From assembly GCA_024679065.1 (NCBI GenBank), contig JAGIQG010000043.1, positions 992,074-1,056,000 on the forward strand: 63,927 bases of DNA. Reading direction: 5' to 3'. The notes beneath the pieces are model-generated. The model saw only the letters and a list, made by a program, of their open reading frames with translations. It did no database searches and was not told the origin of the DNA. Shown here piece after piece: positions 16,051 through 52,211 of this stretch. The position numbers were made by a program, and so were the translations under genes. This DNA is from Sphyrna mokarran. Taxonomy: Eukaryota. Numbering within the stretch: position 1 is the stretch's first letter; each line of letters starts with the position of its first letter.

Positions 16051-16058
16051 AAGTACGT

Positions 16059-21151: not shown

Positions 21152-21352
21152 GTGAGTAACTGGGCCATTTTCAAAGTTCTCCTCTCTGTATGTAATATGA
21201 TTTTCAACATAATTCAAAACCACTACTTATTCCAATGGCGCATGTTGAATTTTCCCATATTTTACCAATGAGTGATTTTTTTTCTCAAATATTTCTTGGC
21301 CAGGATTTGCAGGGTATAATTCCTGTTTAATTCTGTTTATTTTCTTATCCAG

Positions 21353-21405
21353 TTTCAGCTTGGCAGAAAGAATGAGGAGAGGGCAGCGGAAAGAGAGGCA
21401 AATGG
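21353..21405 (+). CDS. VJ-C1 receptor copy A, exon 6: cytoplasmic (SFSLAERMRRGQRKERQM)
   Basis: Long pyrimidine tract ending ttatccag, donor G|GTATGT, phase 2-1 compatible with both neighbours; an in-frame alternative acceptor lies 6 nt downstream. Confidence 0.7.
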
Positions 21406-21614
21406 GTATGTTGCATCCAAACGTTTTCAAAGATTCAACATCATTGAACAGATCAATCATGGAGTCTTTGCAGGGCAGGAGGCCAGTCGGCTTATTGAAC
21501 CTGCATTGAGACCAATCCCATCCAGGCTCTATCCCTGTCGCCCCACACATTAACAGAGTTAATACTCCTGACGGACCCTATTCATTTCCTGTTGGATATA
21601 CATGTCGATTATGC

Positions 21615-22110
21615 TGCAATTTTCCCTAATTTTACCAGACAGGTCTTTCTCATATCCATATCCAGAGTTGCCTAGTGCTTCACATCTTTACTGTTTGCTT
21701 AAACTGATCCAACTGACGTGCAACACGACAGCTCATTGACTATCACTGTTTGCTGTGCAGACACATGGACCTGGGTCGGATCTCCGACTTGGGACGGTGT
21801 CTGTGACAGTTTGCACATTCTCCCCGTCCTTGCGTGGGTTTTCTCCGGCTGCTCCGGTTTCCTCCCGTACCCCAAAAACGTGCTTTTAGGCTGATTGGTG
21901 TTAACAAATTGTCCCTAAATTAGACCTCCCTTAATCTGACACACACATTCTCTAAATTTGCACCCCTTTATTGTAGAGTCCATGTGGCGTAGACAAAAGT
22001 CAGAGGTGGAAGAAGGATTGGAATGAGCCACTCACTGAATGTTAAAATGGCGGCGCGGGCTTGTTTGGCCGAAAGGCCTGTTTCCTGAGCTGTGTTACTC
22101 TTTGTTCGTT
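21615..22110 (+). mobile_element. SINE-like 3' end related to the long-UTR CR1 family
   Basis: caacacgacagctca..gactatc..ctgtgcaga.acatgga head, HE1 core and CR1 3' stem-loop. Confidence 0.7.
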
Positions 22111-22159
22111 GTATTCCTGACTGCTTTCCTAAATTGACACCTTCCACTTTGTTATGTAG

Positions 22160-22209
22160 ATGACCATCGCCAAACACATCGACAGAGAACACAGGAATGT
22201 CTAGTTCAG
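22160..22209 (+). CDS. VJ-C1 receptor copy A, exon 7: cytoplasmic (DDHRQTHRQRTQECLVQ)
   Basis: Acceptor actttgttatgtag, donor CAG|GTAAGA, 50 nt, phase 1-0. Confidence 0.7.
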
Positions 22210-22614
22210 GTAAGAGTTTTGCAAATATTTTAATACCATTTAGGAAATTGGATTTTGGGATAAGTTGCAGGATGTCCCACCCGGGATAGTACATGCGGCG
22301 ATCAGCGAGCAGCTCACTGTCTGAAACATCTAATTGTGAACCAAAATACATTCGTCCACATTTCGGAATCAGAGCATATATCTCTGCGCCTGTTCCAAAA
22401 TATTGTACAGCGAGTGAGTTAATGTTCCGTTTACAATATATCAGGTAGACGTTTCTGCAGATTTCCGGCAGTTTTCATTGCTGATTGCAAGATGTCTTAC
22501 TTCTCTTCACTTTCTGTTTTTTTTTACATGGTGGATCTAATTCCCCCTTAATCAGTTCCAGGTTTCCTCCCATCTGTGCACAGTTGGAAGTGTATTAATT
22601 GCTGGGATTATCTT

Positions 22615-23395
22615 TACAGTGCAATAATGGTTAGCAATGCTGTCTCACAATGTCAGGGACTTGGGTTCAATCTTTGGATTGTGTCAATGTCTCTGTGGAG
22701 TTTTCACGTTTTCCCTGTGCCTGCACGGGGTTCCTCCGAGTGCTCCAGTTTCTTCTCACTGTCCAAAGATGTTCGGATTAGGTGGGTTGGCTATGCTGAA
22801 TTGCCCTTAATGTCAGGCGGACTAGCGAGAGTAAATGCATGGGATTATAGAACATTGAACATTACAGCGCAGTACATGGCTTTCGGCCCCCGATGTTGCG
22901 CCGACTAATGGAACCAGTTTTTGAGCCTCAATCTTAAACTATTCCAAAGCTATCCATATGACTATCCACTGACCATTTGAACGCCCTTAAACTTGACGAG
23001 TCCACAACTGCTGCAGGCAGGGCATTCCACGCCCTTACTACCCTTTGAATATGAACCCACCTCTAGCATCTGTACGATAACTACCTCCCCTTAGTTTAAA
23101 GCTATGTCGCCTCGTGTTATCCATCCCCATCCGAGGAAGAGGGTTCTCACTATCCACCCTATGTAACCCTCTGATCATCTTATATGTCTCAATTAAGTCA
23201 CATCTTTGCCTTCTCTCTAATGAAAATAACTACAAGTCCCTTAGCCTTTCCTCATAAGATCTATCCTCCATATCAGGCAAAATCCGGGTCATCCTCCTCT
23301 GCATCCTTTCCAATGCCTATGGGGATAGGGCCTGGGTGTGATTGTGGTGCAAACTGGATGGACCGAATGACCTCATGCTGTACCGCAGGATTCTA
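22615..23395. mobile_element. HE1 SINE (+) with a nested CR1 3' fragment (-, ~22848-23316); present in both copies (54885-55670)
   Basis: The SINE resumes after the insert; the same structure in both paralogs dates it before the duplication or homogenisation. Confidence 0.82.
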
Positions 23396-23399
23396 AATA

Positions 23400-23715
23400 C
23401 GTGTTGTTTTGAGCTGGTGTGTTTGAGAAATTCTTTGCATCTCTCTGTGTCTGTGATGTTGAGAGTTTGTGTGTGTGTGAGGTTGTGACATTCTCTTTCT
23501 GTGTAACTTTTGTAACTTTCTCGGTGAGAGATTGTGTCTGTGTCGAGCGGGACAGATGAATGTGTGTGTTCGTGAGGGGGAGACTCAGAGAGAGAAATAG
23601 AGGCTACGTGTTTGAGGGAGTCGGTGAATGAGTGAAAACTTCCGTACTGTGTGTGCGTGTGTGTTTCTGGGTGCATCTGTGTCCTATGTGTAAGTGTGTC
23701 TGAGTCTGTGTGTCC
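23400..23715. repeat. Degenerate GT-rich simple repeat (paralog 55675-55985)
   Basis: Interrupted (GT)n/(GA)n runs. Confidence 0.7.
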
Positions 23716-24408
23716 TGGAGCTGTGAAGCAGCAGTGTTACCATGCCGCCCGCGATGGATGATGTTACTGGCTAATTCATTCTTCCATAGATGCATTATGC
23801 CATTTATTTTGAAATTGGGATAGAGAACAATGGAAGCGGGTTAAATAAACACTTTGAAAGGAAATTGGATAACTGCTTGTTGGAAAGAACATTGATGAGC
23901 ATTATGAAGAAAGCTGAGGTGAAGTTTGAACTAAATAGGATGTTATCGCCTTGCAGACTTATTGCTAGAAGATTAGTCCATGAACTCAGCTAATGTTCTG
24001 AGGATTGTGTTCCAGTCCAACCACACCAGAAGGCGGAACATATATTCAGTGAAAAATATTTGCAATTAAGTATCCACTGATGAACAAGAAACCATTGTTA
24101 GAAATAAAAAACACGTGAGCGACACTATTGCAAAGTAAATGTCCCATTCGTATCTAGTGGGCGGCAGACTGCGCAAAGTCAGCAATACCCACGTCCCATG
24201 GATGAATACAAAGTGGATTGCTCTTTCAAAGATCCAACATGGATTCATTGGGCCGAATAGTTTCCATTTAAACAGTAGCATTCTATGATTTTATGTAACA
24301 CTTTTGAGATTTGGTGTCATCCTAAATATTTATGGCCGGAGACCTCCTACTGAACTTTAGGGAATCTATTGCTCCCTTTGATCATTGTATGATTTGTGAA
24401 TGTTTCAG

Positions 24409-24483
24409 AGCGGACCTACCTACGCCTCCCTGGATTTGGCCGCCTTGGAAAAGAGGTCAAAAAAGAAGGCGGGTCGAAAGTAA
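24409..24483 (+). CDS. VJ-C1 receptor copy A, exon 8: terminal exon with tyrosine motif (SGPTYASLDLAALEKRSKKKAGRK*)
   Basis: Acceptor tgtttcag, phase 0; YASL motif; the exon chain totals 1026 nt (341 aa + stop). Confidence 0.65.
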   Translation, partial: SGPTYASLDLAALEKRSKKKAGRK

Positions 24484-28682: not shown

Positions 28683-28729
28683 GGAAATCAATGATTTCCT
28701 GGTAACGTTCTGGCGCCACTACCAGAAAG

Positions 28730-29175
28730 AGAGATTGAACAGACTGGTCTGTACTCGTTAGCCTTTAGTAGGCTGAGTGGGATCTTATGGACACATCTCA
28801 GATAATGAAAGGGCTAGATAGGGTAGAAATATAGAAATTCTTCTCGTTTCGAAAGGAAATCAGGACTAGAGGGCACAGTTTCAAAATAAGGGTGGGGGAG
28901 GGGCAGTTTAGAACGGAGTTGAGGGAAAACTTCTTCACTCAAAGGGTGGTGAATCTCTGGAATTTTTTACCCATTGAAGTATGGAGGCTACCTCGTCGAA
29001 AATATTAAAGTCACGGATAGATAGATTTCTGACAGGCAAGGGAATTTAGGGTTATGGGGAGAAAGCGGGAAAGTGGAACTGATCCATTTCAGATCAGACA
29101 TGATCTTACTGAATAGCAGGGCAGAATCGAAAGGCTAGATGGCCTACTCCTGCTCTCATGTATTAAGTTCTTATG
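28730..29175 (+). mobile_element. Older CR1-type 3' fragment shared by both copies (60030-60475)
   Basis: Same family as 2526-3195. Confidence 0.75.
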
Positions 29176-30880
29176 ACATATTCAGGCTAGACCAGATATA
29201 GACGGTCACTTATCTACCAGAAAAGAGATCACTAATTGATTATATAAATCACGGTTGCCATGGATTAGACTGGATGTTAATCCAACTAATTTATTTTAAA
29301 TTTCTCCATCTGCCCTGATATATTTGGAAGTCTCCATCCTGAAGTAACCATTGACTCTTTGCCCACAAATGAATGTGTCTGATTGACCATGTACCTCGGG
29401 TGTGAGGCCACTCCACAGTTCCTTGTTCAGGGTTTATATTGGTAAGTCTCTGTGCAACCGTCCTCTCTCCTCGTGGCCGCCAGTTAAGAGAAGAAATGCT
29501 TCCATTTTGCCGCCCTCAATGTAAATAGAACCAAGAAGTAAAAGAAAGACAAAGGTTATTTATATTAGTGGCAGTGGAATCATTCTCAGCCCAGAGGGGC
29601 AGAACGTCCAAGTGGATAGATTGGTGACTGTTTCCCGTGAACGATTCTGATCAGCTGCAAATGATTCATTTTTTCACCATGAAATTTTATTTCTATCAGA
29701 AGTGTGTATTGACTAAATTTTCTACTTGACTTAGTATCTCAGTGGCTCTGCTGCTGCAAATGCGCTATTCTAATGGAGGACTGATTAAGACACAAACGTA
29801 CAAAGAGATGTTGCAACGTTCAGGGTGATAGAAAGCTGCTGGGCTGCGGTAACACAGGTAACCGGAAGACATGGTGAACATGCACGTTTTGCAGGCACAG
29901 CGTGCTGCGGTGAAAACAGCGCACTAAAAATATCAGAGCAGGGTGAATTGTCTTTCAGAGTTTCCTGTTTATAGATGAAGAGGCCGCGCACAGCTCAGTC
30001 TGCAATGAAAAACATCTTCTATCTCGTGCTAAGCACGCTTTAAGACTGATCTAAACCGTGTTGAGCAGATAATATGGCTGAATTCAGCAACATGGCTGTT
30101 TGTGAAATTCGAATGGGCACAGCGGACAGCAAAATGTTATATTGAATTCATCCCAAACACCTTACCATATTCTGTTTCTCTGCAAAGAAGTAATGAATGA
30201 AGAAATATTCAAAAGGATGCAAATGTTTTCAAGGCGGTTTCGCCCAGTGCAATTCTCCCTATCTCTTTGTATCATAATTCCATCCTTTGACTTGCGGACA
30301 ATGGGCCATCCACTGCGGGCTGGTGCTCATAGTTCACACGAACTTCCTCCCACATCAATACAATTGCCGCCATCCCCAAACACACATCCCACAACCATCA
30401 ACGGCACACTATTTAATTCCTTTCTCTTTCCTCAGTTTATCCAGTTTCACAATGAAATGTATGCCTGTAGATCGGATGACTGTGGGTACTACTTCCACAT
30501 TCTCCCTCTCCAATGAGCAAAGACATTCCTCGCGACTTGCCTCTGTCTACCATGGCGATTTATTTCATAACTTTATCTTGACTACCCCTCCGCCACTTTT
30601 AGCCTTGTCTTCCCCGGAAGACAGAAGGCTGCTTCTGATGCATATAACCAGCGAATTGGAGCCGTCCATGTTCTCTCCCAAGCAAACATTTGCGCGTTGT
30701 TGTTCATTAAATCGCCTTTTCAGACATCCGGAATCATACAGATATCTAAACAGCCGTGGAATGTCTTTAAATCATGTTCAATGCCCGAATCATCCAAGAG
30801 TAAGCATTGAGGCAATATTGTTGACAAAATATTTATGCATTATTAATATTTTCCCCTGGGGAGTAAGATATATCAGGGAA

Positions 30881-31333
30881 CGATGTTGCCTGGATTGGGA
30901 GGCACGCCTTATGACGATAGGTTGAGGGGGTAGGCCTCTTCTCCCTGAAGAGACTGACAGGTGACTCTGATAGAGGTTTATTAGATGTTGAGAGGAATAG
31001 ATAGCGTGGATTCTCGGAGGCTATTTCCCAGGGCTGAAATGGTCCTTACGAGAGGACGCTGGTTTAAGGTGCTGGGGAGCAAGTACAGAGAAATGTTAGA
31101 GGTAAGTTTTTTTTTCACTCAGAGGGTGGTGAGTAAATGGAATCGGCTGCCGTCAGTGGTGGTAGATGCCAACTCGCTGGGGACTTTTAAGAGACTTCTG
31201 GATGAGTACATGGGATTTAATGGGATTGGGAGTTGCAGGTAGTTCTATGGCCTGGTAGGTACTGATATGATCGGCACAACTTGTGGGCCAAAGGACCTGT
31301 TTGTGCTGTAGTGTTCCATGTTCTATGTTCTAT
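30881..31333 (+). mobile_element. CR1 3' fragment, copy A only
   Basis: Same family as 5069-5484; empty site at ~62217. Confidence 0.88.
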
Positions 31334-31436
31334 GAATCGTGGAAAGATGTTTTCAATGTCTGCAAACCCGGTGTCCAGATGCAAAATCTCTCAATAACAA
31401 ATAGGAACAAGATTAAGTGTATCACTCCAGCGGACA

Positions 31437-31690
31437 TTAGAACATAGAATAGAACATTACAGGGCAGTACAGGCCCTTCAGTCCTCGATGTTGAGCCGAC
31501 CAGTAGAACCAATCTAATGACCCTCCAACCTAAACTATTCTAATGTTATCCGTATGTCTATCCACTAACCATTTGAACGCCCTTAAAGTTAAAGAATGCA
31601 AACAAGGCATGCCACGCCCTTATTACCCTCTGAATAAAGAACCTACCTCTGACATCTGTCCTATAATTAGCGCGCCTCAATTTAACGTGT
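31437..31690 (-). mobile_element. CR1 3' tail shared by both copies (62320-62580)
   Basis: (CATAGAA)n tail and stem-loop. Confidence 0.78.
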
Positions 31691-31919
31691 TTCAAACACT
31701 AAGTGTTTCTTTTTATCTGGTCTCAGTTTGAATCGATGATTCAGTTGCACTGCAGAACGCGTTGGAGGTTTTCCAACCCGAGGGAATGTTGCAGGGGACA
31801 GGAACAATGGGTTAAGTGAAAAGATGCAACTGATGAATTCAGAAAATTGTTCAAACAGGAGCAAATCACTGACTGCTGATCATGTAATTGTCTATATTTT
31901 CAACAGTGCAAAGTGAAAT

Positions 31920-32650
31920 CACGAGGGGTCACGGGCTTAGGGCGAAGGGGCTAAGATATAATTTAGATGCGAGAGGGATTTTTTTTTCACACAGAGGGTT
32001 GTGGGGGTATTGAATGCGCTGCCAAGTAATGTGGTGGAGGCAGGCACTCTGGAGTTATTTAAGAAATACTTAGATGGGCACATGAAAAGAATGGGAATGG
32101 AGGGGTATAGAAAACTGATTTAAAATAGAGATCATGAGCCTTGGGAGTCCCCGGGAAATTTCTAAATAGATGATGATATTGATGTACTTGTCTTTATCCT
32201 ACAGGTGCTTAGGTCCACCTTGTTGTCTAACAAGGGCCATGCACGCGATGGGTCGTGAGAGGGCTGCTCTTGGATTTTATTTTCGGGAGTATCCTAGTGC
32301 TTCACGTCGTTACTGTACGTTTGACCTGGACCATATGATGGGCAACACGACACTTAGTGACTATCCCTGTGCTGTGCAGATACATGGATTTGGGCCCGTG
32401 TCTGTGGGAGATTGCACACTCTCCCCGTGCTTGCGTGGGTTTCCTCCAGGCACTACGGTTTCCTCCTACATCCCAAAGATGTGCTCTTAGGCTAAGTGGC
32501 AAAACAAATTCTCCCTAAATTGTCTCAAGTTTGTTTTGAATCCATAGATCTATAAACATAGACATCATTCACGGGTAGAGGTGGGAACATCGGGGTGGCG
32601 ACGCGGGCTCGTTGGGCCGAAGGGCCTGTTTCCCGTGCTGTTTTGTTCTT
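31920..32650 (+). mobile_element. Long-UTR CR1 3' fragment, copy A only
   Basis: TGAAAT duplication at 31914-31919 and 32651-32656; empty site at ~62803. Confidence 0.9.
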
Positions 32651-33771
32651 TGAAATAAGCAAAAAAAAAAAACGTAGAGATTGGAGAAGAGCATTTCAGG
32701 TTCAGAGAATATGTTTTTATTCCCGTGAGTTTCGAAGATTAAGGGACAACCTGATTTTCCTTAAATAGCGGAATAATATATTGGGATTGACCAATAGTAA
32801 CTATTTCCTCTGGTAGTGTTGTGAATACCCAGGCCAGAAGCTTCAAAATTGTGTGTAGTTAGTCTAAATCCAAGGTATTATAATTGCTTTGGGCATTATC
32901 ATGATCATAATATGTTTCATTATCAGTATGATTTAATTGACCCAACTTTTATCAGACAAAATTTATTAAAGAAAATAAAGTTAAAATATAACAATCACAA
33001 GTCGCTTAACTTTTACCAATTATAAGACTTAAACATCATACTTTATAATATTAACATCTATCTATATCTGCTGCTCCAATTTAAAGATTCCTCCCATGTA
33101 ACCTTCCTGAGAATTGGTTAACACAAAACACGTTTCCTCACGCGGTACTAGATTTCCAGCCATTCATACCAATCGACAGAAATCCAAACAACAGTTTTCA
33201 GAGAAGTATATATGCACAAGGCAGCAAAATAATTAAATAAATCTAGTTTCATCAGCTTTGAGATTTCAGATCTGAGGGTGAAGGGGATAACTCTCTCCCT
33301 CTCTTTCTCTGTGTCTCAACACCAGAGAAAGGTCAAAACTGACACTTCTTTCTCAAGTCCAAACAATTAAATAGCAATTAAATTGGATCTTTTTGTGTAC
33401 GAATCGTTGTTCATGGTCATATGACCTGATCTGTTAGCCGTACCGACCAAGGTCTGCTCTGCAAGCCCAAGCATGCACGCTATAAAACAGATTGCTGCAT
33501 TAGTTTAGATTTAAAAAGACATAGCACCAATTTTGATGTCTGAATAATAATGGAGGATACCATTGTAGAAAAAAAAGTTTGCATAAGATGCTAGGGACTG
33601 CTAGGGACATCCTGCCGATCAACATGATTAAAATATATTTGTTTAAGGCACGGCATCGTCACAGTAGGCTATGTCAAGAAAATTCAGATGGACGTGGTTG
33701 GGTGTAGCGGCTGCGGGTTGGGAGACAAGTTGGGAGAATTGATAATGGAGTTTGTGCATTTAATACCTATT

Positions 33772-34695
33772 AGGCCATAGAACTATCTGTAATTCCCAAT
33801 CCCATTTAATCCTATGTACTCATCCAGAACTTGTTTAAAAGACCGCAGCGAGTTCGCCTCCACCACCACCTATGGCAGCCGACTCCATTCTCTCATCACC
33901 TTCTGAGTGAAAACATTACCCCTAACATCTCCTCTGTACTTGCTGCCCAGTACTTAAACCTGTGCCCTCTCATAGCGACCATTTCAGCTCTGTGAAATAG
34001 CCTCCGACAATCCACCCTATCTATTCCTCTGGACATTTTATAAACCTCTATCAGATTGCCTCTCAACCTTCGTCTCTCCAGGGAGAAGACACCTAGCTCC
34101 CTCAACCTGTCTTCATAGGGCATGCCACCCAATCCAGGCAACACCCTTGTAAATCTCCCCTGCACCCTCTCAGTAGCTTCCACATCCTTCTTGTAGTGGG
34201 GGGAGCACAACTGTGCACAGTACTCCAGTTGTGATCTGACAAGGGTCTTATAAAGTTGCAGCATTACCTCCCGACTTCTCAATTCAACCCCTCGATTAAG
34301 GAAGGCCAGTATACCATACACCGTCTGACAACATCGTCCACTGCGAAACCGATTTAAGGGTCCTATGGACTAGAACCCCAAGATCCTTATGCTCCTCAAC
34401 ACTACGAAAACCCCAACCCTTGATATTGTACTCCTTCATCCCATTGCTCCTGCTAAAATAGACCAGTACACATTTATCTGCATTGAAGTCCATCTGCCAC
34501 TTCTCCGCACATTCTTGCATTTTATCTATGTCTTGCTGCAAATTCTGACATCCCTCCAGACTATCCACAACATCACCAATCTTCGTATCGTCAGCGAACT
34601 TACTAACCCATCCTTCCACTTCCTCATCCAGGCCATTTATGGAAATAACAAACAGCAAGGGTCCTAGAACAGATCCCTAGAGCACTCCACTGGAT
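33772..34695 (-). mobile_element. CR1 RT fragment
   Basis: KFADDTK, LQLYKTLVR, SLERRRLRG motifs. Confidence 0.9.
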
Positions 34696-36424
34696 GTGAC
34701 ATGTTCACAATTCTTCAAACAAAGCAAAAGGGGGATCTGTAATTCTTAACTTCAACTGACCGCTGTGACTAGGACTAAAATGAAACTGTCGCAACGGAAA
34801 TTGATAGATTGATTTTTGGGGACTGGATAGATTTATGGTTGCGAGCTGTGTGGATGGAGTTAAGATATTGTTCCAGCATGGCGGAAACTACCTCACAGAA
34901 GTGCTTATGGTCTCCTGCTGATAGCATGCATAGGGGAAAAGGAAAATATTTTTAATTGGTGATAAAAGAGAAATAAGCCTAATATTCATGTTTTATAGAT
35001 AGTATGTGGAATAAAAGTACAGATTCAAACAGCCAGCAGAAACAAGACAGGTACTTCCTCTTTTGCAGATGGGTAAGGTTCTCTGATTCCATTCTGCAAA
35101 ATCCACTGAGCGATGTTATCCAAAGCGAACATGAATTGGATGTAACTTTGTCTCAGCAATAAATGTAGTTCCGTCATTATTACTGTGCAACAAATTCAAA
35201 AATGCTCTCACTGTGCGTTTTTAATTAATCCAGCATGAATCCGCAACGTATTACTCGATTGCCTCGTCAGTTCTTTACCCATTTCCAAACGCACACACAT
35301 TCCCTGCAAACATGCCTTTGATAATTCGCTAAAGAGCTACCGGCATCGCATTTGTGTTGAACCCAAATCGAAACTCGAATCGTGCAGCTTACATTCCAAA
35401 TCTGCTTCGAACAATTGGTAACTCGGATACAGATACATTTTGAATTGTTTATTGCATATTTACCATAGACAATGCAGAACAGAATTGTAAGAAAACGACA
35501 TAAGGAATTGGAAGAATAAAGGGGTGAAATTATGCTGCAGGCGATACTCCATTGTAGAATGGCGGATATTACGGGAGAGTATGTTTTCCGCTTTGGGCAC
35601 CATCACAGCATTGGGCCGCCAATCTGTTCGAATTTGCTCCAATTGGACCTTCAAAATTCACTGTGCAACAAGAGGAATGTTTCTACACTAGGTATAAAGG
35701 AAACACACTCTTCTTTTTGCCTCGTTCTCTCTTTCCTCTCGAGTTAGTGTGTTGGATCGTTATTGAAGGCCAGACCAGCATAAAGAGTCTGTGGATGAAA
35801 AGTGATCTGTCAATGTACTCCACAACATCATTGTAGGGATCGATGAGGCCATTGAGACCCTCACTATATTCAGCTAGATTAAGGCTGACATGTATTTTAG
35901 CCCATATGCTTCCGCCATTTTTGAATAATCCTTAATATTCTCCCGCATGTAAATCTATCCATCACAATTCCAACTGTTAAACTGGCTGGATCAGCTGTTG
36001 TTTTAACGGGGGAGTGAGTTCCAAAATTTGACTCCCATTGTGTTAAAAACGAAGTTCCTAAATGGACGTGGTTGGCTACCAACTTAATATTCTGCTCCCT
36101 TGGCGGGATATCCCCAGCGGGCCTCTGCACTCCATCCCTTCCCCCAGCCCCCAGCTATGGTGGCGTCCTACAGTGCCACCGACGCCAAAGAAAACTCCAC
36201 GAGTTCCCTGGCGGCGGAGTTGTGCAAATGACGGGAAACCAAGTTGACACAAACTTGAACAACGGGCTACATCCTACTTTGTGGAGTTACGGGAGGCGGA
36301 CAGGGGTGCGCTGCTTATAACTAGGCAGGAAAATCGACCCACGTGGGTGGAATGGGGAATTTGGCTAATGTTTTAAATTAGGTCTGAAGAAGCATCCCAA
36401 TGGCTCGCAAAGAGGGAGTGGTAG

Positions 36425-36826
36425 AAAAAGCTGTGGCTTTTCTCTTTAGGGCAGAGGGGGATGAGAGACGATGTAATAGAGGTTTGGAAGGTGATGAGGG
36501 GGATTGATGGAATGGACTTTCAGAGACTATTTCCTCGGGTGGATGTAGTTGTTACTGCAGGGCAGAACTACAAAGTTCATTGTGGGAGACACAGGAGGGA
36601 TGTCTGAGGTAGATTATTTACTTGGAGAGTGGTTGGGGTCTGGAAAGCACTACCTGCTGTGACAGTGGAGTCGGGCACTTTAGAAACTTTCAAGCGGTTA
36701 CTGGATAGGCACATGGAGCACTCCAGAATGAGAGGGAGTGCGATAGCTTGATCTGGGATTGACATAGTTCGGCACAACATTGAGTGCTGAAGGGCCTGTA
36801 CTATGTTATAATGTTTTATATTCTAT
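36425..36826 (+). mobile_element. Older CR1 3' fragment
   Basis: Decayed ORF2 end, gggcctgta stem-loop and tail. Confidence 0.75.
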
Positions 36827-36949
36827 TCCCGTCTCCACAAATGCTGCCAGAATGGCAGATTTGTCTTCTTTCCAGTGCTATTACGAACTTTGAATATAGG
36901 GTGAAATGGTAGGGGAAAATAATCACGCAATATGGAAAAGAAAATGTAC

Positions 36950-37008
36950 CTTTTCATTCTGTACGTGCGATCTGGAAGCTGACAAGGCCTCATTGCTTCT
37001 TGCATTAT
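36950..37008 (-). pseudogene. Orphan cytoplasmic exon following the TM exon (DNARSNEALSASRSHVQNEK)
   Basis: Acceptor with a long T tract ending cttctaaacag, donor AAG|GTACAT, 59 nt, phase 1-0, in frame with the TM exon across a 131-nt intron. Confidence 0.6.
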
Positions 37009-37139
37009 CTGTTTAGAAGAAAAAAAAACATCGGGCTGAATGGCCATATTTCACGCATTTCATTCACAGTGTCAATAATTCAGTAATAAATGGCTGGATT
37101 GAGGATGCCGCCGAGTTAGAGTCTCCGAACAATCGCTAC

Positions 37140-37259
37140 CTCTCTGCCGATTCCTGCAGCTCCATCTCCCAACCACACAGACCAATCCCAGAAGGAGCAG
37201 CGCCGCGGCCGACAACCCCCCTGAGAGTGAAACAATGCATAACGTCGTTACCGGAATAT
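37140..37259 (-). pseudogene. Orphan transmembrane exon of a second receptor gene ((D)IPVTTLCIVSLSGGLSAAALLLLGLVCVVGRWSCRNRQR)
   Basis: Strong acceptor ttattttgtttttctttctcag, 120 nt, phase 1-1, hydrophobic core then basic residues; donor G|GTAGCG is weak; no upstream exons found. Confidence 0.7.
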
Positions 37260-38012
37260 CTGAGAAAGAAAAACAAAATAATTTTCACCTCCAATTAGAA
37301 TTTTGGAAAACATAGATAACTGAACAATTTGATCAAAGCTGATCGTTGGTTTTGTCTTTCTGTGATGAAGCAAACAAGTTGCTGAACATTTTTTTTTCAA
37401 CAGGACACAGGGGAGAGAGAAAGTGAGAGATTGAATGCGACTGAGGGAGAGCAAAAATCGAAGGATCATCGTTCAGTGAGAGACAATTTGAAATACATTT
37501 GTAAGGAGTAATTACGAGAAAAAGGAGAGCGATAGAGCAGATACATTATAGAGAATTGTTTCACTTGGATATACATAACGGGACAGACAGAAGATACACG
37601 TTAAGGACAGATATATGAAAAGAGAGTAAGAATACATCGAGACAAATAGCTGTCTGTTTAAATGCAACACTGTTTAACTGGACGAATCAGGCCAGAGTGA
37701 GTATATTGCATACATCAATAGATAGAGACCGAGAGAAAAAATAATAGCTGGTGACAAAGAGATACGAGGGAATGAGGTTGACACATAACTGTCCTATGAC
37801 AACTAGGGATAGGCAATGAATGCTGGAGATACATCGAAGCCCATGTCCCAGGAATGAATAAAGAAGAAAAGGGGGGGCGGGAGTTGTAAGGAGGAAGAGT
37901 AAAAGGCGGGTGGATTGGAGAGAGACAGAGAATTTAATACTGGGCTAAACAGGGAGATTAGAGAAATGGTGAGAAAAGAGAAAAAAAGAGAGGGAATGAT
38001 ATGCAGGGAGTC

Positions 38013-41000
38013 AAAGAACGAAGACCAAAACAGCACAGGAAACAGGCACTTCGGCCCAACGAGCCCGCACTGCCACCCCGATGTTTCCATCTCTACCCGC
38101 GATCCCTGTCCATGTTTATAAATCTATGGATTAAAATCCAAATTTGAGACAATTTAGGGAGAAATTGTTTTGCCAATTAGCCTAAGAGTACATCTTTGGG
38201 ATGTGGGAGGAAACGGGAGCACCCGGAGAAAACCCACGCAAGCACGGGGAGAATGTGCAAACTCCCACAGACACAGGCCCAAATCCATGTATCTGCACAG
38301 CACAGCGATAGTCACTGAGCTGTCGTGTTGTCCATCAGATGGTCCAGGTCAAGCATACACTAACGACGTGAAGCAGTAGGATACTCTCGAAAAAGATCCA
38401 AGAGCAGTCTCTCACGACTCATCGCGTGTATGCCCCTCGTTAGACAACAAGGTGGACCAAAGCACCTGTAGGATAAAAACAAATACATCAATATCATCAT
38501 CTATTTACACACTTCCCAGGGACTCCCAAGGCTCACGATTCCTATTTTAAATCAGTTTTCTATACCCCTACATTCCCATTCTGTTCATGTGCCCATCTAA
38601 GTACTTCTTAAATAACTCCAGAGTACCTGCCTCCACCACTTCACTTGGCAGCGCATTCCATACCCTACCACCTTCTGAGTGAAAAATGTCCCTCTAGCAT
38701 CCAAATTATACCTTAAACCCCTCATCCTAAGCCCGTGACCCCTCGTGCTATTTGAGTGCATCCTAGGAAAAAGCTTAACCCTGTTTACTCTATCAATCCC
38801 CTTCAAAATCTTGTACACCTCTATCAGATCTCCTCTAAGTCTACGCCTTTCTAAGGAAAACAGTCTCAATTTGCCTAATCTCTCCTCATAATTCAGACCT
38901 TCCATACCAGGCAGCATCCTGGTCAACCTCCTCTGCACTGTCTCCAGAGTCTTCACGTCCTTCCGGTAGTAAGGCGACCATATCTCCCGGGTTTCCCGGG
39001 TTTCGGCAGGATTACCTTGCATATGAAATATAGGGCTAATGGAAGGACCCTTAATAGTGTTGTCGAGCAGAGGGATCTTGGGGTACAATTACATAGCTCT
39101 TTGAAAGTTGACACCCAGGTTGATAAAGTTGTTAAGAAGGCGTACGGTGTGTTAGCTTTTATTGGTAGAGGGATTGAATTTAGGAGCCGTGAGGTTATGT
39201 TACAACTGTACAAAACTCTGGTGCGGCCGCACTTGGAGTATTGCGTACAGTTCTGGTCGCCGCATTATAAGAAAGATGTGGAAGCATTGGAAAGGGTGCA
39301 GAGGAGGTTTGCCAGGATGTTGCCTGGTATGATGGGAAGGCCTTATGAGGAAAGGCTGAGGGACCTGAGGTTATTTTCATTAGAGAGAAGAAGGTTACGT
39401 GGTGACCTAATTGAGGCGTATAAGATGATCAAGGGATTGGATAGGGTGGATAGTGAGAGCCTTTTTTCCTCGGATGGTGATGACCAACACGAGGGGACAT
39501 AACTTTAAATTAAGAGGTGGTAGTTATAGGACGGATGTCAGAGGCAGGTTCTTTACACAGAGGGTGGTGAGGGCGTGGAATGCCCTGCCTGCAGCAGTTG
39601 TGGACTCGCCTACTTTGGGGGCATTCAAATGTTCGGTGGCTAGGCATATGGATGATATTGGAATAGTTTAGGTTAGAGGGTCCACTGGCCGGCGCAACAT
39701 CGAGGGCCGAAGGGCCTGTACTGCGCTGTAATGTTCTATGTTCTATATCTGGACGCAGTATTCCAAATGAGGTTTAACCAGCGTTTTATACAACTGAAAC
39801 ATTAAAGGCCAGCTCTTGTACTCTATACGCCTTCCTATAAACGCTAACATACTATATGCTTTCTTCACAACCTTCTCCACTTGCTCTGCCACCTTCAGAG
39901 ACTTGTTCACCTGCACTCCCAGGTCCCTCTGCGCTTCTATACTCTTAACAGGTCTACCCTTTTTCATAAACCTCCCCCCCTACATTCTTTCTCCCGAAAT
40001 GCATCACCTCACATTTATCAGGATTGAATTCCATCCGCCATCTGTCTGCCCAAGCTACCAGCATATCTATGTCCTGCTGTATCGCCTGACAATGCTCCTC
40101 ACTACCCGCAAGTCTAGTCATCTTTGTATCGTCTGCAAACTTGATGATCACTCCACTTACTCCCTCTTCCAAGTCATTTATATATATTACAAATAGAAGA
40201 GGTCCCAGTACCGAGCCCTGCGGCACACCACTAGTGACCAACCTCCAGCTAGAGAAACACCCTTCCACTATTACTCTCTGTCTCCTATTACCAAGCCAGT
40301 TACTTATCCATCTAGCTCCCTGTCCTTGTATCCCATTTGCCTTGACTTTCTCGACTAAGCTCCCATGAGGGACTTTGTCAAACGCCTTACTAAAATCCAA
40401 ATAGACAACATCAACAGCTCGCCCTTCGTCCACTGATTTCGTCACCTCCTCAAAAAATTCTATCAGATTTGTAAGGCACGGCCTCCCCTTAACAAATCCA
40501 TGCTGCGTATCCCTAATCAGATCGCAACGCTCGGGGTGTCTATACATCCTACCTCTAAGAATCCCCTCCAACAGCTTCCCTACCACTGATGTCAAACTCA
40601 CCAGCCTATAATTTCCAGGGTTATCCTTACTACCCTTTTTAAACAATGGTTCCACATTAGCTATTCTCCAGTCCACTGGGACCTCACCTGTCTCCAAGGA
40701 AGAGACAAAGATTTGAGTAAGAGGACCAGCAATTTCACCTCGCACCTCCCTAAGCAGTCTAGGATAAATGATATCAGGCCCAGGAGATTTATCAGTTTTA
40801 ATGCTACCTAGAAGCTCTAACACTTCCTCCCTCGGTATGGATATTTCCCTTAACTGGTCCACAGCTCCCTCAGAGATAGGAGCTGTCAACAAGCCCCTCT
40901 CCTTCGTGAATACCGACGCAAAGTATTCATCCAGAATCTCCGCCATTCCCTCGGGCTCTAATCTCAGTTCCCCTCTGTGCCTAAGAGGTCCGATTTTTCC

Positions 41001-43400
41001 TCTAACCACCCTTTTATTCCTGACATAGGAATAAAAAGCCTTTGGGTTTTCCTTAATCCTAACAGCCAAAATCATTTCATGCCCCCTTTTTGCCCTTCTA
41101 ACTCCTTGTTTGAGCTCCCTCCTACTCTCTCTATATTCTTTCAATACTGTCTCAGTTCTCAGCTGCTTCGACCTATCATACGCTTCACTTTTCTTCCTAA
41201 CCAAGTCCTCAATATCCCTAGTAATCCACGGCTCTCTAATACTACCTTTCCCATCTTTCCTCTTGGCCGGCACATACTTATCTTGCAACATTTTCAGTAT
41301 TCCCTTGAAAGAGTCCCACATGCCTAGTGTGGACTTACCCTCAAACAACCGTTCCCATTCAGTTTCCCTAAGTTCCTGCCTAATCCGACCGTAGTTAGCC
41401 TTCCCCCAATTCAGCACCCTCCCCCTGGGGCAACAAGCATCCTTTTCCATCTGAATTCTAAAGTAGACAGAATTGTGGTCACTGTTACCCACATGTTCCC
41501 CTACTACAACATCAACCACCTGCCCTGGATCATTACTCAGAACTAAATCCAAGAGAGCTCCTTCTCTAGTCGGGCTAGCCACATACTGTTCCAACGCTCC
41601 TTCCAGGACACATTTTACAAATTCCTGCACATCCAAACCCCCAGCTCTAAGTACTTTCCAATCCACCCTAGGGAGATTAAAATCTCCCACTGTAACTACT
41701 CTGTTCTTTCTGCACCTATCCAAAATGTCTCTACATATGCCTTCTTCATTCCCCCGTGGGCTGTTGGGTGGCCTATAATACACCTCTAGCATAGTAATTG
41801 TCCCCTTTCTATTTCTCAACTCCATCCACAGCGACTCCACTCCTAACTCCTCTGTATTGTCCTCCCTCTGCACTGCTGTGATGCTCTCCTTAACTAACAA
41901 CGCCACTCGCCCACCTATTCTGGACCCTCCTCTGTCACGCCTGAAACATTTATACCCAGGAATGTTCAGTTGCCACTGCTCCCCTTCCTTTAACCACGTC
42001 TCTGTCACTGCAACCACATCCAAGCTCCTCGCAAACATTAAGGCCCTAAGTTCATCCGTTTTTCCCGTTACGCTCCTCACATTGAAGCAGACACAATCCA
42101 GACCTCCAAGACCACTCGGAACCTCCTTCTCCCCGGTGCACCTCTTCTCATCCAAGCTTACTCAATCTCCCATCTCGCTCTCTACCGAGATATCGGTGTC
42201 GTCCCCTCCCCCCCTCCATATTAGTTTAAATCCTGCCGAAACACAGCTAACCTCCCAGCTAAGATATTCACACCCTTCCCATTCAAGTGTTCCCCATCCC
42301 TTCCATACAGGTGCCCTTCTTTCACAAAGAATTCCCAGTTATCCACAAATACGAAACTCTCTGCCCTACTCCAGTCCTTCAGCCACGCATTCAGCTGTAG
42401 GATCTCATTTCTCCTGGCTGCACTATTACCGGCGCCTGGAAGCAGTCCTGAGATCTTCGAGGCCCTGCTCTTCAACCTATCTCCCAACTACCTGAACTGC
42501 CTTCTTATATCCTCCATGCTCTTTCTTCCGACATCCTTCTCTCCTACGTGAATAATCACATCCGCCTGGGTCCCCTCACCCTTCAAAATGCCCTCTACCC
42601 TGTCTGACACATCTTGCACCCCTGCTCCAGTGAAGCAAACTACCATCCTGGAGTCCCGCCTTGAACCACAGAAGCGTCTATCTATTCCTGTAACCCTCCC
42701 ATCCCCCACCATTACCTCCCTTTTAGCCCCTTTCCTCCCCTTTGAGGTACTCTGGTCCTCGTGCCTTGCCTTTTTTAACCCTCCGCCCTCGACATTTGGG
42801 GGGCTGCCACTGGGGAAGTCTTTGGACTGTGTCCCCTCTCCTTTTAGCCCTTCCTGACAGTAATCCACCTGGAAGGGTCAGGTTCCCCGCCCCCATCTCT
42901 TAGGCTCCGGATCTGCCACCCTACTCTGCCTCCCTTCCATGATTGCTTCGTTCTCCCTGACTAAAAATGCATCTTCCAACTGGCGCTCCAGTTGCTTGAC
43001 CCGAACCCTTTAGACGCTGCAGCTCCAAACACTTGACACATACGTGGACTTTCGGGAGAAGTCTCGCTTCCAGGAACTCCCACATGTGACACCGTACAAC
43101 AGGTGAGGCGTCTTCCCTGCCGTTGTCTTGGACACCTGTGGAGGTGTGAATTCCAGTGGAAACCCAGTAGCACACTGTGCCTAAGCCTGCTCTCGCCTAA
43201 GCCCTTATATCTCACCCTGCTGCCCTATTCACTCCGCTACCCGCTCCCGACGCTGCCCGCTGTCTACTGCCACTTCCTTTTTATACTCCCGGTGCCCTTC
43301 CCAACTAGCCCCAGGACTAACTACAGCAGCAAAAAGCACTCAAAAAGAGAGAGGAAAAAAAAACAAATTGAAAAAAAATCACACTCAGCCACCAACATTT
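38013..43400 (-). mobile_element. Near full-length CR1 of the long-UTR family (disrupted ORF1 ~42221-43175; ORF2 endonuclease-RT from ~42155)
   Basis: ORF1 Cys-rich N-terminus and SGNH-esterase-like motifs; 733-aa ORF with AVTETW, YYRPP, VGDFN, LDLVL, QGSVLGP, KFADD; SINE-containing 3' UTR at 38013-38575. Confidence 0.93.
38986..39744 (+). mobile_element. CR1 3' fragment nested in the element above
   Basis: ATATCT duplication at 38980-38985 and 39745-39750; host ORF2 continues across it (..YCVQI / WSPYY..). Confidence 0.92.
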
Positions 43401-43519
43401 CCTAGCCATATGCCCCGAACGAATAACAGATTATTATACATAAAACAACATGACACCGAATAACAGAGGGCGAGAGAGGATGAATAACGCTAAGTTAAAA
43501 CAAGCGGACAGATAATCAG

Positions 43520-46365
43520 ATGAACCTTATCAAACGCTTTGCTAAAATCCATATACACTACATCAACTGCCTTACCCTTATCTACCTCTTTGGTCACCTC
43601 CTCAAAAAACTCAATAAGGTTTGTGAGGCACGACCTACCCTTCACAAAACCGTGCTGACTATCCCTAATCAATTTATTTCTCTCTAGATGCTTATAAATC
43701 CTATCCCTTATAATTCTTTCCAAGACTTTGCCCACAACAGAAGTCAGGCTCACCGGTCTATAATTTCCAGGATGGTCCCTACTCCCCTTTTTGAACAAAG
43801 GGACAACATTTGCCATCCTCCAGTCTTCTGGCACTATACCTGTAGCCAACGACGACATGAAGATCAAAGCCAAAGGCTCTGCAATCTCCTCTCTAGCCTC
43901 CCAGAGAATCCTAGGGTAAATCCCATCTGGCCCAGGAGACTTATCAATTTTCATACCCTCAAGATTCGCTACCACCTCCCCCTTATGAACCTCAATCCTG
44001 CCCAGTCTACAACCTGGTATCGCAGTATTCTCCCCGACAACACTGTCTTTCTCCTGCGTGAATACTGACAAAAAATACTCATTCAGTGTCTCTCCTATCT
44101 CCTCAGGCTCCACGCACAACTTCCCACTGCTACCTCTGACTGGCCCTAATCTTGCCCTAACCAATCTTTTATTATTTATATACCTGTAAAAAGCTTCAGG
44201 ATTCTCCTTAATCCTATCCGCCAAACTCTTCTCATGTCCTCTTCCAGCTCTTCTCAACTCTCTCTTTAGCTCCTTCCTGGATAATTTATTGCTCTCCAGC
44301 GCCCTAACTCAGTCTTCACGTCTCATCATTATATAAGCCTCTTTCTTCCTCTTCACCAGAGATTCAACTTCCCTAGTACATCATGGTTCCCTCACTCGAC
44401 CACTTCCTCCCTGCCTGGCAGGTACATACTTATTAAGGACATGCAGATGCTGTTCCTTCAATATGCTCCACATTTCAGATGTCCCCAGCCCCTGCAATTC
44501 CCTGCTCCACCCTATGCATTCTAAATCTCTCCTAATAGCCTCATAATTACCTTTCCCCCAGCTACAACTACTGCTATTCGGTATGTGCCCATCCCTTTCC
44601 ATCACTAAGTTAAACGTAACCGAATTGTGGTCACTGTCACCGAAGTGCTCACCCACCTCCAAGTCTAACACCTGGTCTGGTTCTTACCTAGTACCAAATA
44701 CAATATAGCATCACCTCTTGTTGGTCTATCTACATACTGAGTCATGAAAACTTCCTGCACACATTGAACAAAAACTGACCCCTCTAACGTCCTTGAACTA
44801 TAGCTTTTCCAATCGATATTAGAAAAGTTAAAGTCCCCCATTACAACTACCCTGTTACTTTCACACCTATCCAGGATCAACTTTGCAATCCCTTCCTTTA
44901 CTTCTCTGGAACTTTTTGGAGGCCTATAAAAAACTCCCAACAGCGTGACCTCTCCTTTCTTCTTTCTAATCTCAGCCCACACTACCTCAGCAGACAAGTC
45001 CACATCAAACGTCTTTTCTGCCACCGTAATGCTGCCCTTAACTAACAATGCCACTCCACACCCTCTTCTACCACCACCTCTGCTCTGACTGAAACATCTT
45101 AAACCCGGAACCTGCAACAACCATTCCTGCCCCTGTTCTATCCACGTCTCTGAAATGGTCACAACATCGAAGTCCCAAGCACCAATCCAGGATGCAAGTT
45201 CATCCACCTTATTGCGTATGCTCCTCGCATTAAAGTATACACACTTCAAACCACCCTCCCGTTTGCCACTATACTGCTGCGACCTAGAAACCTTATCCGT
45301 GACCTCCCTATTCACATCCTCCTGTATACTAGCACAACAATTCATGTTCCCAACTCCCCCCTAATCAGTTTAAACCCCCCCGAATAGCACTGGCAAATTT
45401 TACCCCCCAAGACATCGGTACCTCTCTGGTTCAGGTGCAGACCATCCCTCTTGTAGAGGTCCCACCTTCCCCAGAATGAGCCCCAATTGTCCAAATACCT
45501 GAACCCTTCCCTCCTGCACCATCCCTTTAGCCACGAGTTCAAATGTTCCCTCTCCCTATTCTTTTCTATGCTATCCCGCGGCACAGGTAACAAACCAGAG
45601 ATAACCAGTCCGTTTGTTTTAGCTCTAAGATTCCACCCTAACTCTCTGAATTTCTGCTTTATATCCCCATCCCTTTTCCTACCTACGTCATGGGTACCTA
45701 CATGCGCCACAACTTGGGGCTGGTTCCCCTCCCCCTTAAGGACCCCAAACACTCGGTCAGAGATAGCACTGACCCCAGCGCCCGGGAGGCAACATACCAA
45801 CCGCGAGTTCCGCTCCTTCCCACGGACTCTTTTATCTATCCCCTTAACTAGGGAGTCCCCAATCACTAATCCAGATCTTTTCTTCCCCCTTCCCACCTGA
45901 ACATCAAGGACAGGCTCAACTCCTGAGACCTGTACTCCATGGCTTACCCCGGTTGTATCTTCATCCCCAACAGCATCCAAAGCAGAGTACTTATTATGTA
46001 GAGGAACAGCCTCAGGGGAACTCTGCACTGACTGCCTCTTACCCCTTTTAAAAGTCAACCATGTATCACATTTAGCAGTAACTATCTCCATGTAGCTTTT
46101 ATCAATAGCCATCTCTGCTTCCCTAATATTCCTTAGTTCCTCCAGTTCCAGCTCCAGGTCCCTAACACGGTCCTCAAGGAGGTGGAACTGGATGCTCCTC
46201 TGGCAGGTGTAATCAGCAGGGACACTACCAGTGTCCCTCACCTCAAACATCCCACAGGAGGTACATCACACTGCCTGCACTGCCATCCCTATTACTTCCT
46301 TTACACAGAAACAAATATAAACTTAAACTTACCTGCTCACACTCCTAGTCGCTCTCCTTTTTTTG
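43520..46365 (-). mobile_element. CR1 with 5' end and nearly intact ORF1 (45342-46286) but ORF2 broken off mid-RT
   Basis: ORF1 motifs VIGDSLV, CLPGA, HVGTHD, DGLHLN; ORF2 stops after MDFSKAFDKV with no 3' tail. Confidence 0.92.
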
Positions 46366-46367
46366 CT

Positions 46368-47356
46368 GGAGGCAGGCACTCCGGAGTTATTTAAGAAATA
46401 CTTAGATGGGCACATGAACAGAATGGGAATGGATGGGTATAGAAAACTGATTTAAAATTGGGATCATGTTCCTTTGAAGTTACTGGGAAGTGTGTAAATA
46501 GATGATTAGATTGATGTACTTGTTTTTATCCTACAGATGTTTGGTCCACTTTGTTGTCTAACAAGGGGCACATACGCGATGGGTCGTGAGAGGGGTGCTC
46601 TTGGATTTTTTCCAGAGTATCCTTATTGAAACATATAAGATGGTTAAAGGTTTAGATAGGGTGGACAGTGAGAGCTGTTTTTCTTTGGATGGAGAAAGCG
46701 AGCACGAGGGGACATAGCTTTAAATTAAGGGGTGGTAGTTATAGGACGGATGTCAGAGGTAGGTTCTTTACCCAGAGGGTGGTAAGGGTATGGAATGCCC
46801 GGCCTTCTGCAGTTGTAGATGCGCCAAGTTTGGTGGCGTTTAAGAGGTTAGTAGATAAGTTTATGGACGAAAAGGGAATGGTTTAGGTTAGAGGGTCACT
46901 GCTTTTTCCTGATTGGTCGGCGCAACATCGAAGGCCGAAGGGCCTGTTCTGCGCTGTAATGTTCTATGTTCAAAGTTCTATCCTAGTGCTTCACGTTGTT
47001 AGTGTACGCTTGACCTGGACCATTTGATGGACAACACGACAGCTCAGTTACTATCGCTTTGTTGTGCAGATACCTGAATTTGTGCCTGTGACTGTGGGAG
47101 ATCGCGCATTCTCCCCGTGCTTGCGTGGGTTTTCTCCGGGTGCTCCGGTTCCCTCCCACATGTGAAGATGTGCTCTTAGGCTAATTGGGAAAACAAATTC
47201 TCCCTAAATTGTCTCAAATTTTGTTTTTAATCCATGGATCTATAAACATGGACAGGGTTCACGGGTAGACGTGGGAATATCGGGGTGGCGGCACGGGCTT
47301 GTTGGGCCGAAGGGCCTGTTTCCGTGCTCTTTTGTTATTTGTTCTTTGTTCTTTGT
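46368..47356 (+). mobile_element. Long-UTR CR1 3' end (paralog of 11445-12073) with a nested CR1 fragment at 46624-46978
   Basis: TATCCT duplication at 46618-46623 and 46979-46984; the insert is absent in copy A. Confidence 0.88.
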
Positions 47357-50820: not shown

Positions 50821-50875
50821 ATGGTCGAAGAATCTCTATCTTTGATACTCATTTTCCAAATCCTGAGATTTCACT
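50821..50875 (+). CDS. VJ-C1 receptor copy B, exon 1 (signal peptide MVEESLSLILIFQILRFH)
   Basis: Paralog of 15522-15576 with 2 substitutions; donor intact. Confidence 0.7.
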
Positions 50876-51428
50876 GTGAGTAAGAGGCGGGTAGGAATTA
50901 TAGCAGAATGAATTTTATAAAAAATAATGAGTTTTCTTCGAAGCCAAAAGCACGTGCCAGAGTTCAGGTGAAGGCTTTTGAACTAATCATATAAATTAAT
51001 TTATAAAGCGAAAAAAATAAGTATAACAAACGAAAATTACAAAGAATAATGAGATTGCACAGTGGATAGCACTGCTGCCTCAGAGCGCCAGAGAACTGGG
51101 TTTGATACCTGTTTGGGTCGCGGTCTGTGTGGAGTCTGCACGTCCTCTCCCCGTCTGCATGGGTTTCCTCCCATCGCTCAAGTTTGCTCCCACAGTCCAA
51201 AAGAGGTGCCAGTTGATGCATTGGCGGTGCTAAAAATTCTCCCTCAGTGTATCCGGACAGGCCTCGCTCTGTGGAAAACAGGGGATTTTCGCCCTAACTT
51301 AATTGCAGTGTTAATGTCAGGCTACTTCTGACATCAATAAAGTATGTTTTAAATCGAGGCGATTTGATTTTTAGAGTCTGCTTCAGGTATTTCAATAATC
51401 AGTGCTTCTCTCACAATAAACTCTCTAG

Positions 51429-51758
51429 TTACAGAATCCGAGTCCTCTCTGTCTCAGATCCCCTTCACAGTGACAGCTGCAGTGGGCCAAACGGTGGAGT
51501 TATTCTTCCATGACACTCAAGAAGTGAATTTGGTATCCGACTATGCTTGGTACAAACAGAGGCTGGGTGAAGCCCCGATACTAATAAACACCACAACCTG
51601 TACTAGGCCCAACTGTAAGTTTATTTCTGAAAAAGGCAATCCAGGGAATGTGTTGATTCTGAAAATTCGCAATGTCCAGACCACTGACTCTGGTTCGTAC
51701 TACTGTATATATACTTGGTCTGCACTGTTCGGGGATGGAACCATACTCCTGGTTGGAG
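51429..51758 (+). CDS. VJ-C1 receptor copy B, V(J) exon
   Basis: Open 330-nt exon, splice sites intact, 3 substitutions vs copy A (A>V, I>T, R>W). Confidence 0.85.
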
Positions 51759-51849
51759 GTAAGGGATCAAGTGAAATCCATTCAGAGTATGCACACCATT
51801 ATCTTTTTTGTGTAAATTAATCGTTAACTATGTCCCAATTTCTGTCCAG

Positions 51850-52211
51850 ACAGTTCCACCAACAAGACGGCTGTGCAAGTATTTGTCCCGCTGGCTGAGC
51901 TGGATGTGCATGATGCCGTGCCCTTAGTGTGTTTGGTCAATGGAGTTTCTTCCAATCAGGTGGGTATTTTCTGGAATATTTCTGGCCTGGTCACTGAGGG
52001 ATCGAGTGATCCCGGGACAATGGAGGAGGATGGGACCTACAGCATCAGAAGTCATGTCATGGTGTCGGGGCAAGTCTGGAGAAGTGGCGGTGTCTGTACT
52101 TGCATTGTTCAACCGGGGATTTCAGGCAAATATTGGACGGAGAGTGTGTTCTTCCCCAAAGCAACAGAAACTGGGACAGATGAGTTGTTAATCTCCACAA
52201 TGATGCCTTGA
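51850..52211 (+). CDS. VJ-C1 receptor copy B, C1 exon with mutated donor; reads through to a stop (...TETGTDELLISTMMP*)
   Basis: Open C1 exon 51850-52179; donor is ATGAGT instead of GTGAGT (G>A at 52180); in-frame TGA ends at 52211. Confidence 0.7.

Follow-up and report, generated by a model that had tools for sequence, protein, structure and literature searches.

The closest known counterparts of the shark receptors considered here appear to be chicken PRARP1/2 and the VJ-C1 genes of tetrapods and fish. These proteins reportedly have a V-C1 ectodomain in non-avian species and one ITIM/ITSM-like motif, and PRARP and VJ-C1 are said to form disulfide-linked homo- or heterodimers in vitro and to be expressed in B and T cells. 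The paired receptors KIR, LILR, SIRP and teleost NITR, all of them single-chain receptors, belong to birth-and-death clusters with inhibitory forms having a tyrosine motif, with short-tail forms having a basic residue in the transmembrane (TM) segment, and with recombination between ectodomains and tails; an arginine in the outer leaflet of the TM pairs with FcR-gamma or CD3-zeta. PRARP1, PRARP2 and VJ-C1 are described as non-rearranging genes with joined V and J (PMC10751288, PMC11599192). In PMC12227049, the shark genes UrIg and UrIg2 are non-rearranging, with VJ followed by C1-type domains (three in UrIg, nine in nurse-shark UrIg2); they are expressed in liver/gill, form disulfide homodimers in which the V domains do not pair in VH/VL fashion, and are considered shark candidates for the pre-RAG receptor. 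No paper describing the shark cluster discussed below was found in the literature, although Fu 2019, Ohta 2019, Flajnik 2023 or their supplements might contain such a description.

The window, which is the whole 63,927-nucleotide stretch of Sphyrna mokarran DNA that was analysed, contains genes of one receptor family on the plus strand (family A) and, on the minus strand, the intact TM and tail exons of a non-rearranging gene of a second family (family B), which is missing its leader, V and C1 exons. The B chain likely pairs with the neighbouring A chain, forming a disulfide-linked heterodimer of TCR-like shape (probability about 0.6).

The family-B exons of the window and their complete relatives

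The sequence-only reading had pointed out two minus-strand exons with strong acceptors and matching phases, coding for a membrane-proximal cysteine, an uncharged TM, a basic stop-transfer segment and a short tail piece. The splice sites, phases and translations confirm this description, and a third exon completes the tail. The features of the window are as follows.

37259-37140, minus strand: family-B TM exon, 120 nt, TTTCTCAG acceptor, GTAGCG donor, phase 1-1
37008-36950, minus strand: family-B first cytoplasmic exon, 59 nt, phase 1-0, canonical splice sites
35788-35744, minus strand: family-B terminal coding exon, TLYAGLAFNNDPTH-stop; AATAAA at about 35453
37260-43522, minus strand: rest of the C1-TM intron, with CR1/SINE insertions common to the sister gene
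43523-46368, no strand: breakpoint with CR1 fragments, in the place expected for the B C1, V and leader exons; a 25.3-kb stretch missing from the sister arm starts here
15522-24483, plus strand: family-A gene A1, convergent neighbour of the orphan B module
A1 exons, plus strand: leader 15522; VJ 18582-18911; C1 19003-19332; TM 20922-21023; short cytoplasmic exons
50821-56767, plus strand: family-A gene A2, which matches A1 at about 99% identity in VJ/C1/TM

The translation of the TM exon, (D)IPVTTLCIVSLSGGLSAAALLLLGLVCVVGRWSCRNRQR, comprises the stalk cysteine, the uncharged TM and the basic stop-transfer segment, and that of the first cytoplasmic exon is (D)NARSNEALSASRSHVQNEK. The terminal exon, unnoticed in the sequence-only reading, supplies TLYAGL, a tyrosine motif of the ITIM/ITSM-like type, whose counterpart in database homologues is TLYARL. 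When both strands of the window are scanned for AG..GT exons with a cysteine, a hydrophobic 19-mer and basic residues, 37259-37140 is the sole match; this filter is strict, as it did not recover the family-A TM exons. In the 2.77-Gb genome, a DNA search gives 40 matches, 34 of them on the contig of the window (C1027). The TM exon is identical to that of a complete sister gene (contig 1125.75 kb), and, splice sites included, none of the three B exons of the window, all of them intact, differs from its counterpart in this gene. The flagged exons are beyond chance. Six RNA runs have small word shares, and the alignment of four of them to the region 35700-37300 gives reads only over a repeat at about 36400-36830, the TM and first cytoplasmic exons being uncovered and one run having depth 1-2 near the last exon.

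Intact VJ-C1 paralogs had been predicted for the second receptor family and are found by tblastn: at most 12 kb upstream of 29 of the 34 paralogous TM exons there is a B-type V exon with a joined J motif, plus a C1 exon. Complete B genes (leader-V-C1-TM-cyt-last exon) are present at contig 933 kb, 1117 kb and elsewhere, and paralogous 3' exons, expected a few kb beyond position 63927, do exist, their TM exon lying about 1.9-2.0 kb past the window end. Judged by these comparisons, the TM and tail exons are the 3' half of a predicted non-rearranging family-B gene of the leader-VJ-C1-TM-tail type. Its sequence had been called unlike that of the plus-strand gene, which does not hold, as families A and B are homologous (about 30-35% identical). 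They share the layout leader-VJ-C1-stalk cysteine-TM-tail, with one C1 exon per gene and one tyrosine motif per chain, usually TLYARL in B and PLYASL in A, and Pfam assigns V-set and C1-set domains. V and J share one exon in every gene read. The J motif FGNG/FGND lies inside the V exon in 20/20 B V exons examined; the J-like segment of family A is mostly LQNGPTLLV, with FGxG in 5 of 30 parsed V exons. A cysteine pair of the C' strand is seen in 10/10 A-like versus 1/11 B-like V domains among those read. The stalk cysteine is present in 37/37 B and 27/27 A TM exons found in up to 1.1 Mb of contig, counts that come from profile searches favouring cysteine-bearing exons. When a B protein of horn shark is modelled (overall pLDDT 69.6; 74-93 over most of the Ig domains), the best Foldseek matches are TCR and Ig light chains, at 20-27% identity; the closest database proteins are from sharks, antibodies are among the matches listed in a PDB sequence search, and the protein atlas gives generic V-set/C1-set clusters only.

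Gene models of both types exist for many sharks and rays, and those of several other sharks include multi-gene A/B clusters. Among 30 of the 150 listed representatives, taken by name, homologues are found in chimaera, sturgeon, paddlefish, gar, bichir, salmonids, coelacanth and lungfish and, among tetrapods, in amphibians (including a caecilian), turtles, lizards and alligators; no bird sequence is among these 30. In a 59-row tree, shark B groups with bony-vertebrate sequences (97/94) and shark A with others (94/88), next to a third bony-vertebrate group; in a 32-row tree the support is 85/61 for the B clade and 83/83 for A. A split of A and B older than the split of sharks and bony vertebrates is favoured by these trees, and a shark-only A+B clade is not rejected by the AU test (p 0.18). 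The third VJ-C1-TM lineage (P0108, P0117, P0132, P0155, P0175, P0061) occurs in lungfish, coelacanth and ray-finned fish, and the trees place no shark sequence in it. A Logan contig of 1540 bases carries a near-identical counterpart of a skate B protein, suggestive of a spliced transcript in skate.

The sequence-only reading had also proposed that the copy in the window lost its 5' half. This is borne out, as tblastn detects neither a V nor a C1 exon of B type from the TM exon up to the end of the window, and as the match with the sister gene ends at 43522. Between window 28683-43522 and contig 1134327-1119492, the 3' half of the complete B gene at 1116-1127 kb, in a sister module 90 kb from that of the window, the identity is 99.4%; the match breaks off within the C1-TM intron, next to CR1 fragments. 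Other arm segments are 97.7-98.8% identical. The 5' half of the sister matches, at 99.6% identity, the B gene located 6-8 kb past the window (V 330/330 nt, C1 302/303). Six residues past the cysteine, the TM of this gene carries an arginine; its first cytoplasmic exon is frameshifted and its last exon lacks the tyrosine. A third copy, at contig 1308-1333 kb, has the same ectodomain type joined to an Arg TM (97-98% identical), and because it keeps this join, the sister is likely the recombinant. The Arg-type arrangement is probably the older one, the module of the window having presumably lost the 5' half that belonged to it. On the sister arm, crossing-over within the C1-TM intron would have removed 25.3 kb, placing this ectodomain on the inhibitory-type module. 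The same ectodomain occurs with two predicted signalling ends, inhibitory-type in the sister and with an Arg TM and no motif in the gene beyond the window. The window copy itself is most likely a silent gene fragment. The two flagged exons are an ordinary truncated duplicate; the interest is in the system they reveal. A related copy at contig 1173 kb has kept its leader and is missing V and C1.

In the window, the last exon of A1 starts at 24409 and encodes PTYASL. In A2, about 580 bases are deleted through the first cytoplasmic exons (53994-53996), and the last exon (56693-56767) has an early stop and no tyrosine. The V exons 18582-18911 and 51429-51758, as well as three close paralogs, have a phenylalanine in place of the first canonical cysteine (ELFFHD), keep a CxxxxC pair, and have the J motif FGDG, which is absent from most A genes.

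The A/B cluster and its variants

The cluster spans 2.2 Mb (contig 610-2849 kb) and comprises about 34 A and 38 B V exons. These counts may be inflated, because of an inverted duplicate of 42,848 bases with 0 mismatches (C1027 949126-991973 and 1175764-1218611), which is either a very recent duplication/conversion or an assembly artefact. Neighbouring V exons are of different type in 53 of 71 cases versus 35.9 in shuffles (p 4e-5), in a count that leaves out matches on other contigs, second pieces of split V matches and C1-only fragments; as evidence of pairing this alternation is weakened, since duplication of an A+B block, ignored by the shuffle test, yields it with or without binding of the products. 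The proposal that A and B form a repeating unit agrees with the alternation. Opposite strands had been thought to be its rule, and this part fails: 39 of the 53 A/B neighbour pairs are on the same strand, 9 are convergent and 5 divergent. Opposite orientation prevails only in contig 600-1340 kb, the part containing the window, and, as most A/B neighbours are on one strand, it is merely a local layout.

At a second locus (contig C894 of 26.5 Mb, 2351000-2395000; L076-L080) there is a single head-to-head A/B pair, which sits among single-exon GPCR-like ORFs and has close orthologues in catshark and smooth-hound models. At C1027 620000-632000 (L092, L093), a B-type Arg TM exon is preceded, 9 kb upstream and in the same orientation, by an A-type V-C1; an A-type TM was not found between the two, and this arrangement is a possible A/B chimera. 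All 53 of 53 MHC class I matches are on contig C1548, the cluster contig C1027 being 2.86 Mb long; V-like exons with a weak similarity to family A are clustered at 81.1-81.9 Mb of C1548, and the class I matches on this contig are at 85-96 Mb. In the 200 kb upstream of the cluster no informative gene is seen, one GIY-YIG match being obtained from the 150 of 266 flanking ORFs scanned.

In 6/6 B TM exons in which an arginine follows the cysteine by 6-7 residues there is no open route to the tail motif, versus 3/31 of the others (p 3.6e-5, tallied by hand and with copies that are not independent). Only two of these six copies have an intact B ectodomain; two have frameshifted V exons and two are without a nearby B-type V, so simple decay may account for some of the association. 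A mid-TM arginine occurs in four copies, at least three of which keep the motif. The combination of arginine and short tail is also seen in Mustelus (P0058) and Heterodontus (P0045) models, and a short tail also occurs in the uncharged database isoform P0003. Between the two intact Arg-type B genes, V differs in 15 nonsynonymous versus 2 synonymous codons and C1 in 2 versus 3, a V-domain divergence that is suggestive only. Loss of the tail motif in both chains is found in the 1043/1062-kb unit and its 1308/1329-kb duplicate, which count as one event. The A neighbours of the Arg-type B copies at 1987 and 2679 kb retain the motif, and co-loss was for this reason dropped as support for pairing.

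Probable pairing of the A and B chains

The complex of horn-shark A (22-250) and B (19-242), modelled without alignments, has an ipSAE of 0.73, the best of three controls, none of which is an A:A or B:B homodimer, having 0.00; contact agreement between runs is at least 69% and the partner pLDDT at least 78. The pass mark is reached by 51/78 solved versus 2/108 mismatched microbial pairs, and by 71/105 solved versus 2/126 unrelated eukaryotic pairs. The modelled interface is of the Fab/TCR type, with V-V and C1-C1 contacts, and its confident contacts include the two stalk cysteines (A C242, B C237). As Fab/TCR pairs are abundant among solved structures, this pass may show likeness only. At the V-V interface, A carries 'AP' and B another residue and FG; the former we take to be light-chain-like and the latter residue heavy-chain-like, by comparison with VL/VH. 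Conservation at interface versus other positions is 0.78 versus 0.74 and 0.81 versus 0.77 in C1, and 0.67 versus 0.74 and 0.73 versus 0.72 in V, so that the positions of the predicted interface are barely more conserved than the rest. The notion of a TCR-like, disulfide-linked heterodimer is plausible in its structural part, given the model and the cysteine in both stalks. It does not hold for signalling, which is not TCR-like, as both chains end in an inhibitory-type tyrosine motif and most TMs are uncharged. A second receptor family that is paired with the first holds at the gene level and is plausible, on balance somewhat favoured, at the protein level.

It is possible, at lower probability, that A and B, though related, act as receptors independently of each other, as disulfide homodimers or monomers, and that the alternation comes from a duplicated ancestral two-gene block. 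A stalk cysteine serves homodimers too, as in UrIg/UrIg2 (disulfide homodimers in PMC12227049). The orientation of A and B is variable, each chain, with a motif of its own, would not depend on a partner for signalling, and the A neighbours of two Arg-type B copies keep their motif. However, the modelled heterodimer passed with both cysteines in contact, the 'AP' of A and the residue and FG of B are presumably light- and heavy-chain-like, respectively, and A and B are kept together at the second locus and across taxa, which argues for the A:B heterodimer.

The two remaining alternatives concern the window itself. That the assembler joined its arm to the sister arm although the two are alleles or uncollapsed haplotypes, which would make the on/off pair allelic and inflate the gene counts, is unlikely: the mismatch-free inverted duplicate nearby and identical copies of cluster genes on small contigs (C851-853, C1404) agree with such a join, and the 99.4-99.6% arm identity could be heterozygosity, but the other arm segments and the third copy are more divergent (97.7-98.8% and 97-98%, respectively), and multi-gene clusters are modelled in other sharks as well. 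Still less probable is that the exons are not orphaned, the B gene 6-8 kb past the window splicing its C1 either to its own Arg TM or, over ~33 kb and across the antisense A2, to the exons of the window. The strand is the same, the phase is compatible (C1 donor phase 1) and the three exons match a complete gene with all splice sites intact, but a TM exon with good splice sites and more 3' exons intervene, and recent duplication (99.4%) explains the intactness.

If A and B indeed pair, the A:B dimer would bind a ligand via its paired V domains, and the two phosphorylated tail motifs would recruit SHP-type phosphatases, damping the cell; for some B copies, in which the TM carries an outer-leaflet arginine and the motif is lacking, signalling would run through an adaptor of the FcR-gamma/CD3-zeta type. 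The cluster probably evolves by duplication of the A+B unit and by crossovers in the C1-TM intron, one of which likely gave the sister, 90 kb away, its combination of the inhibitory module with another ectodomain, with predicted on/off receptors carrying one V domain as the outcome. The locus illustrates, at the sequence level, how one V domain reaches predicted inhibitory and predicted activating tails. The wider proposal of an ancient germline two-chain system, with an A/B pair like TCR alpha/beta, RAG-free combinatorial diversity from dozens of each chain and crossovers swapping inhibitory and activating tails, is a tentative one; if true, the system would be a living model of a heterodimeric receptor preceding the rearranging antigen receptors.

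Comparison with known systems

The resemblance to PRARP/VJ-C1 is in the V and J-like segments in a single germline exon (FGNG/FGND in 20/20 B, FGxG in 5/30 A), in the two linked gene types (the alternating cluster and the single pair on C894), in the single C1, TM and one ITIM/ITSM-like motif per shark chain that are also said to characterize PRARP/VJ-C1, and in homologues from bony fish, amphibians and reptiles, which match the range reported for those genes. Unlike the single pair of PRARP, the shark cluster has about 70 alternating V exons, Arg-TM variants without a motif, and tail swapping.

TCR alpha/beta and Ig heavy/light chains are similar in the V(J)-C1 chain, in the stalk cysteine, in the V-V and C1-C1 pairing as modelled, and as the nearest solved folds. 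Identity with a TCR chain is rejected, because V and J are in one exon instead of in split segments for RAG joining, and because the TM of the window is uncharged and its tail ends in TLYAGL, whereas TCR chains have a basic TM residue and a short tail without a motif; being uncharged, the TM of most shark copies has no CD3 pairing site. A germline-joined Ig light chain, as in the database labels 'kappa/lambda light chain-like', is rejected as well, such a light chain being a soluble VJ-C chain that lacks a TM and both families having TM and cytoplasmic exons.

With UrIg/UrIg2, as these are described in PMC12227049, the A and B genes have in common a non-rearranging VJ followed by a C1-type domain in sharks, and a disulfide dimer, which is predicted for A/B. 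They are not the same genes, as each A or B gene has one C1 exon versus three or more, and as A/B are multigene families with an inhibitory-type tail. Structurally, a non-rearranging, heterodimer-shaped membrane V-C1 pair with about 70 genes would be a closer analogue of the TCR than UrIg/UrIg2. The tyrosine-motif forms, the short-tail forms with a TM arginine and the tail swapping of the shark cluster recall KIR, LILR, SIRP and NITR; unlike these single-chain receptors, the shark receptors would, according to the model, have a V-C1 heterodimer design built from two families.
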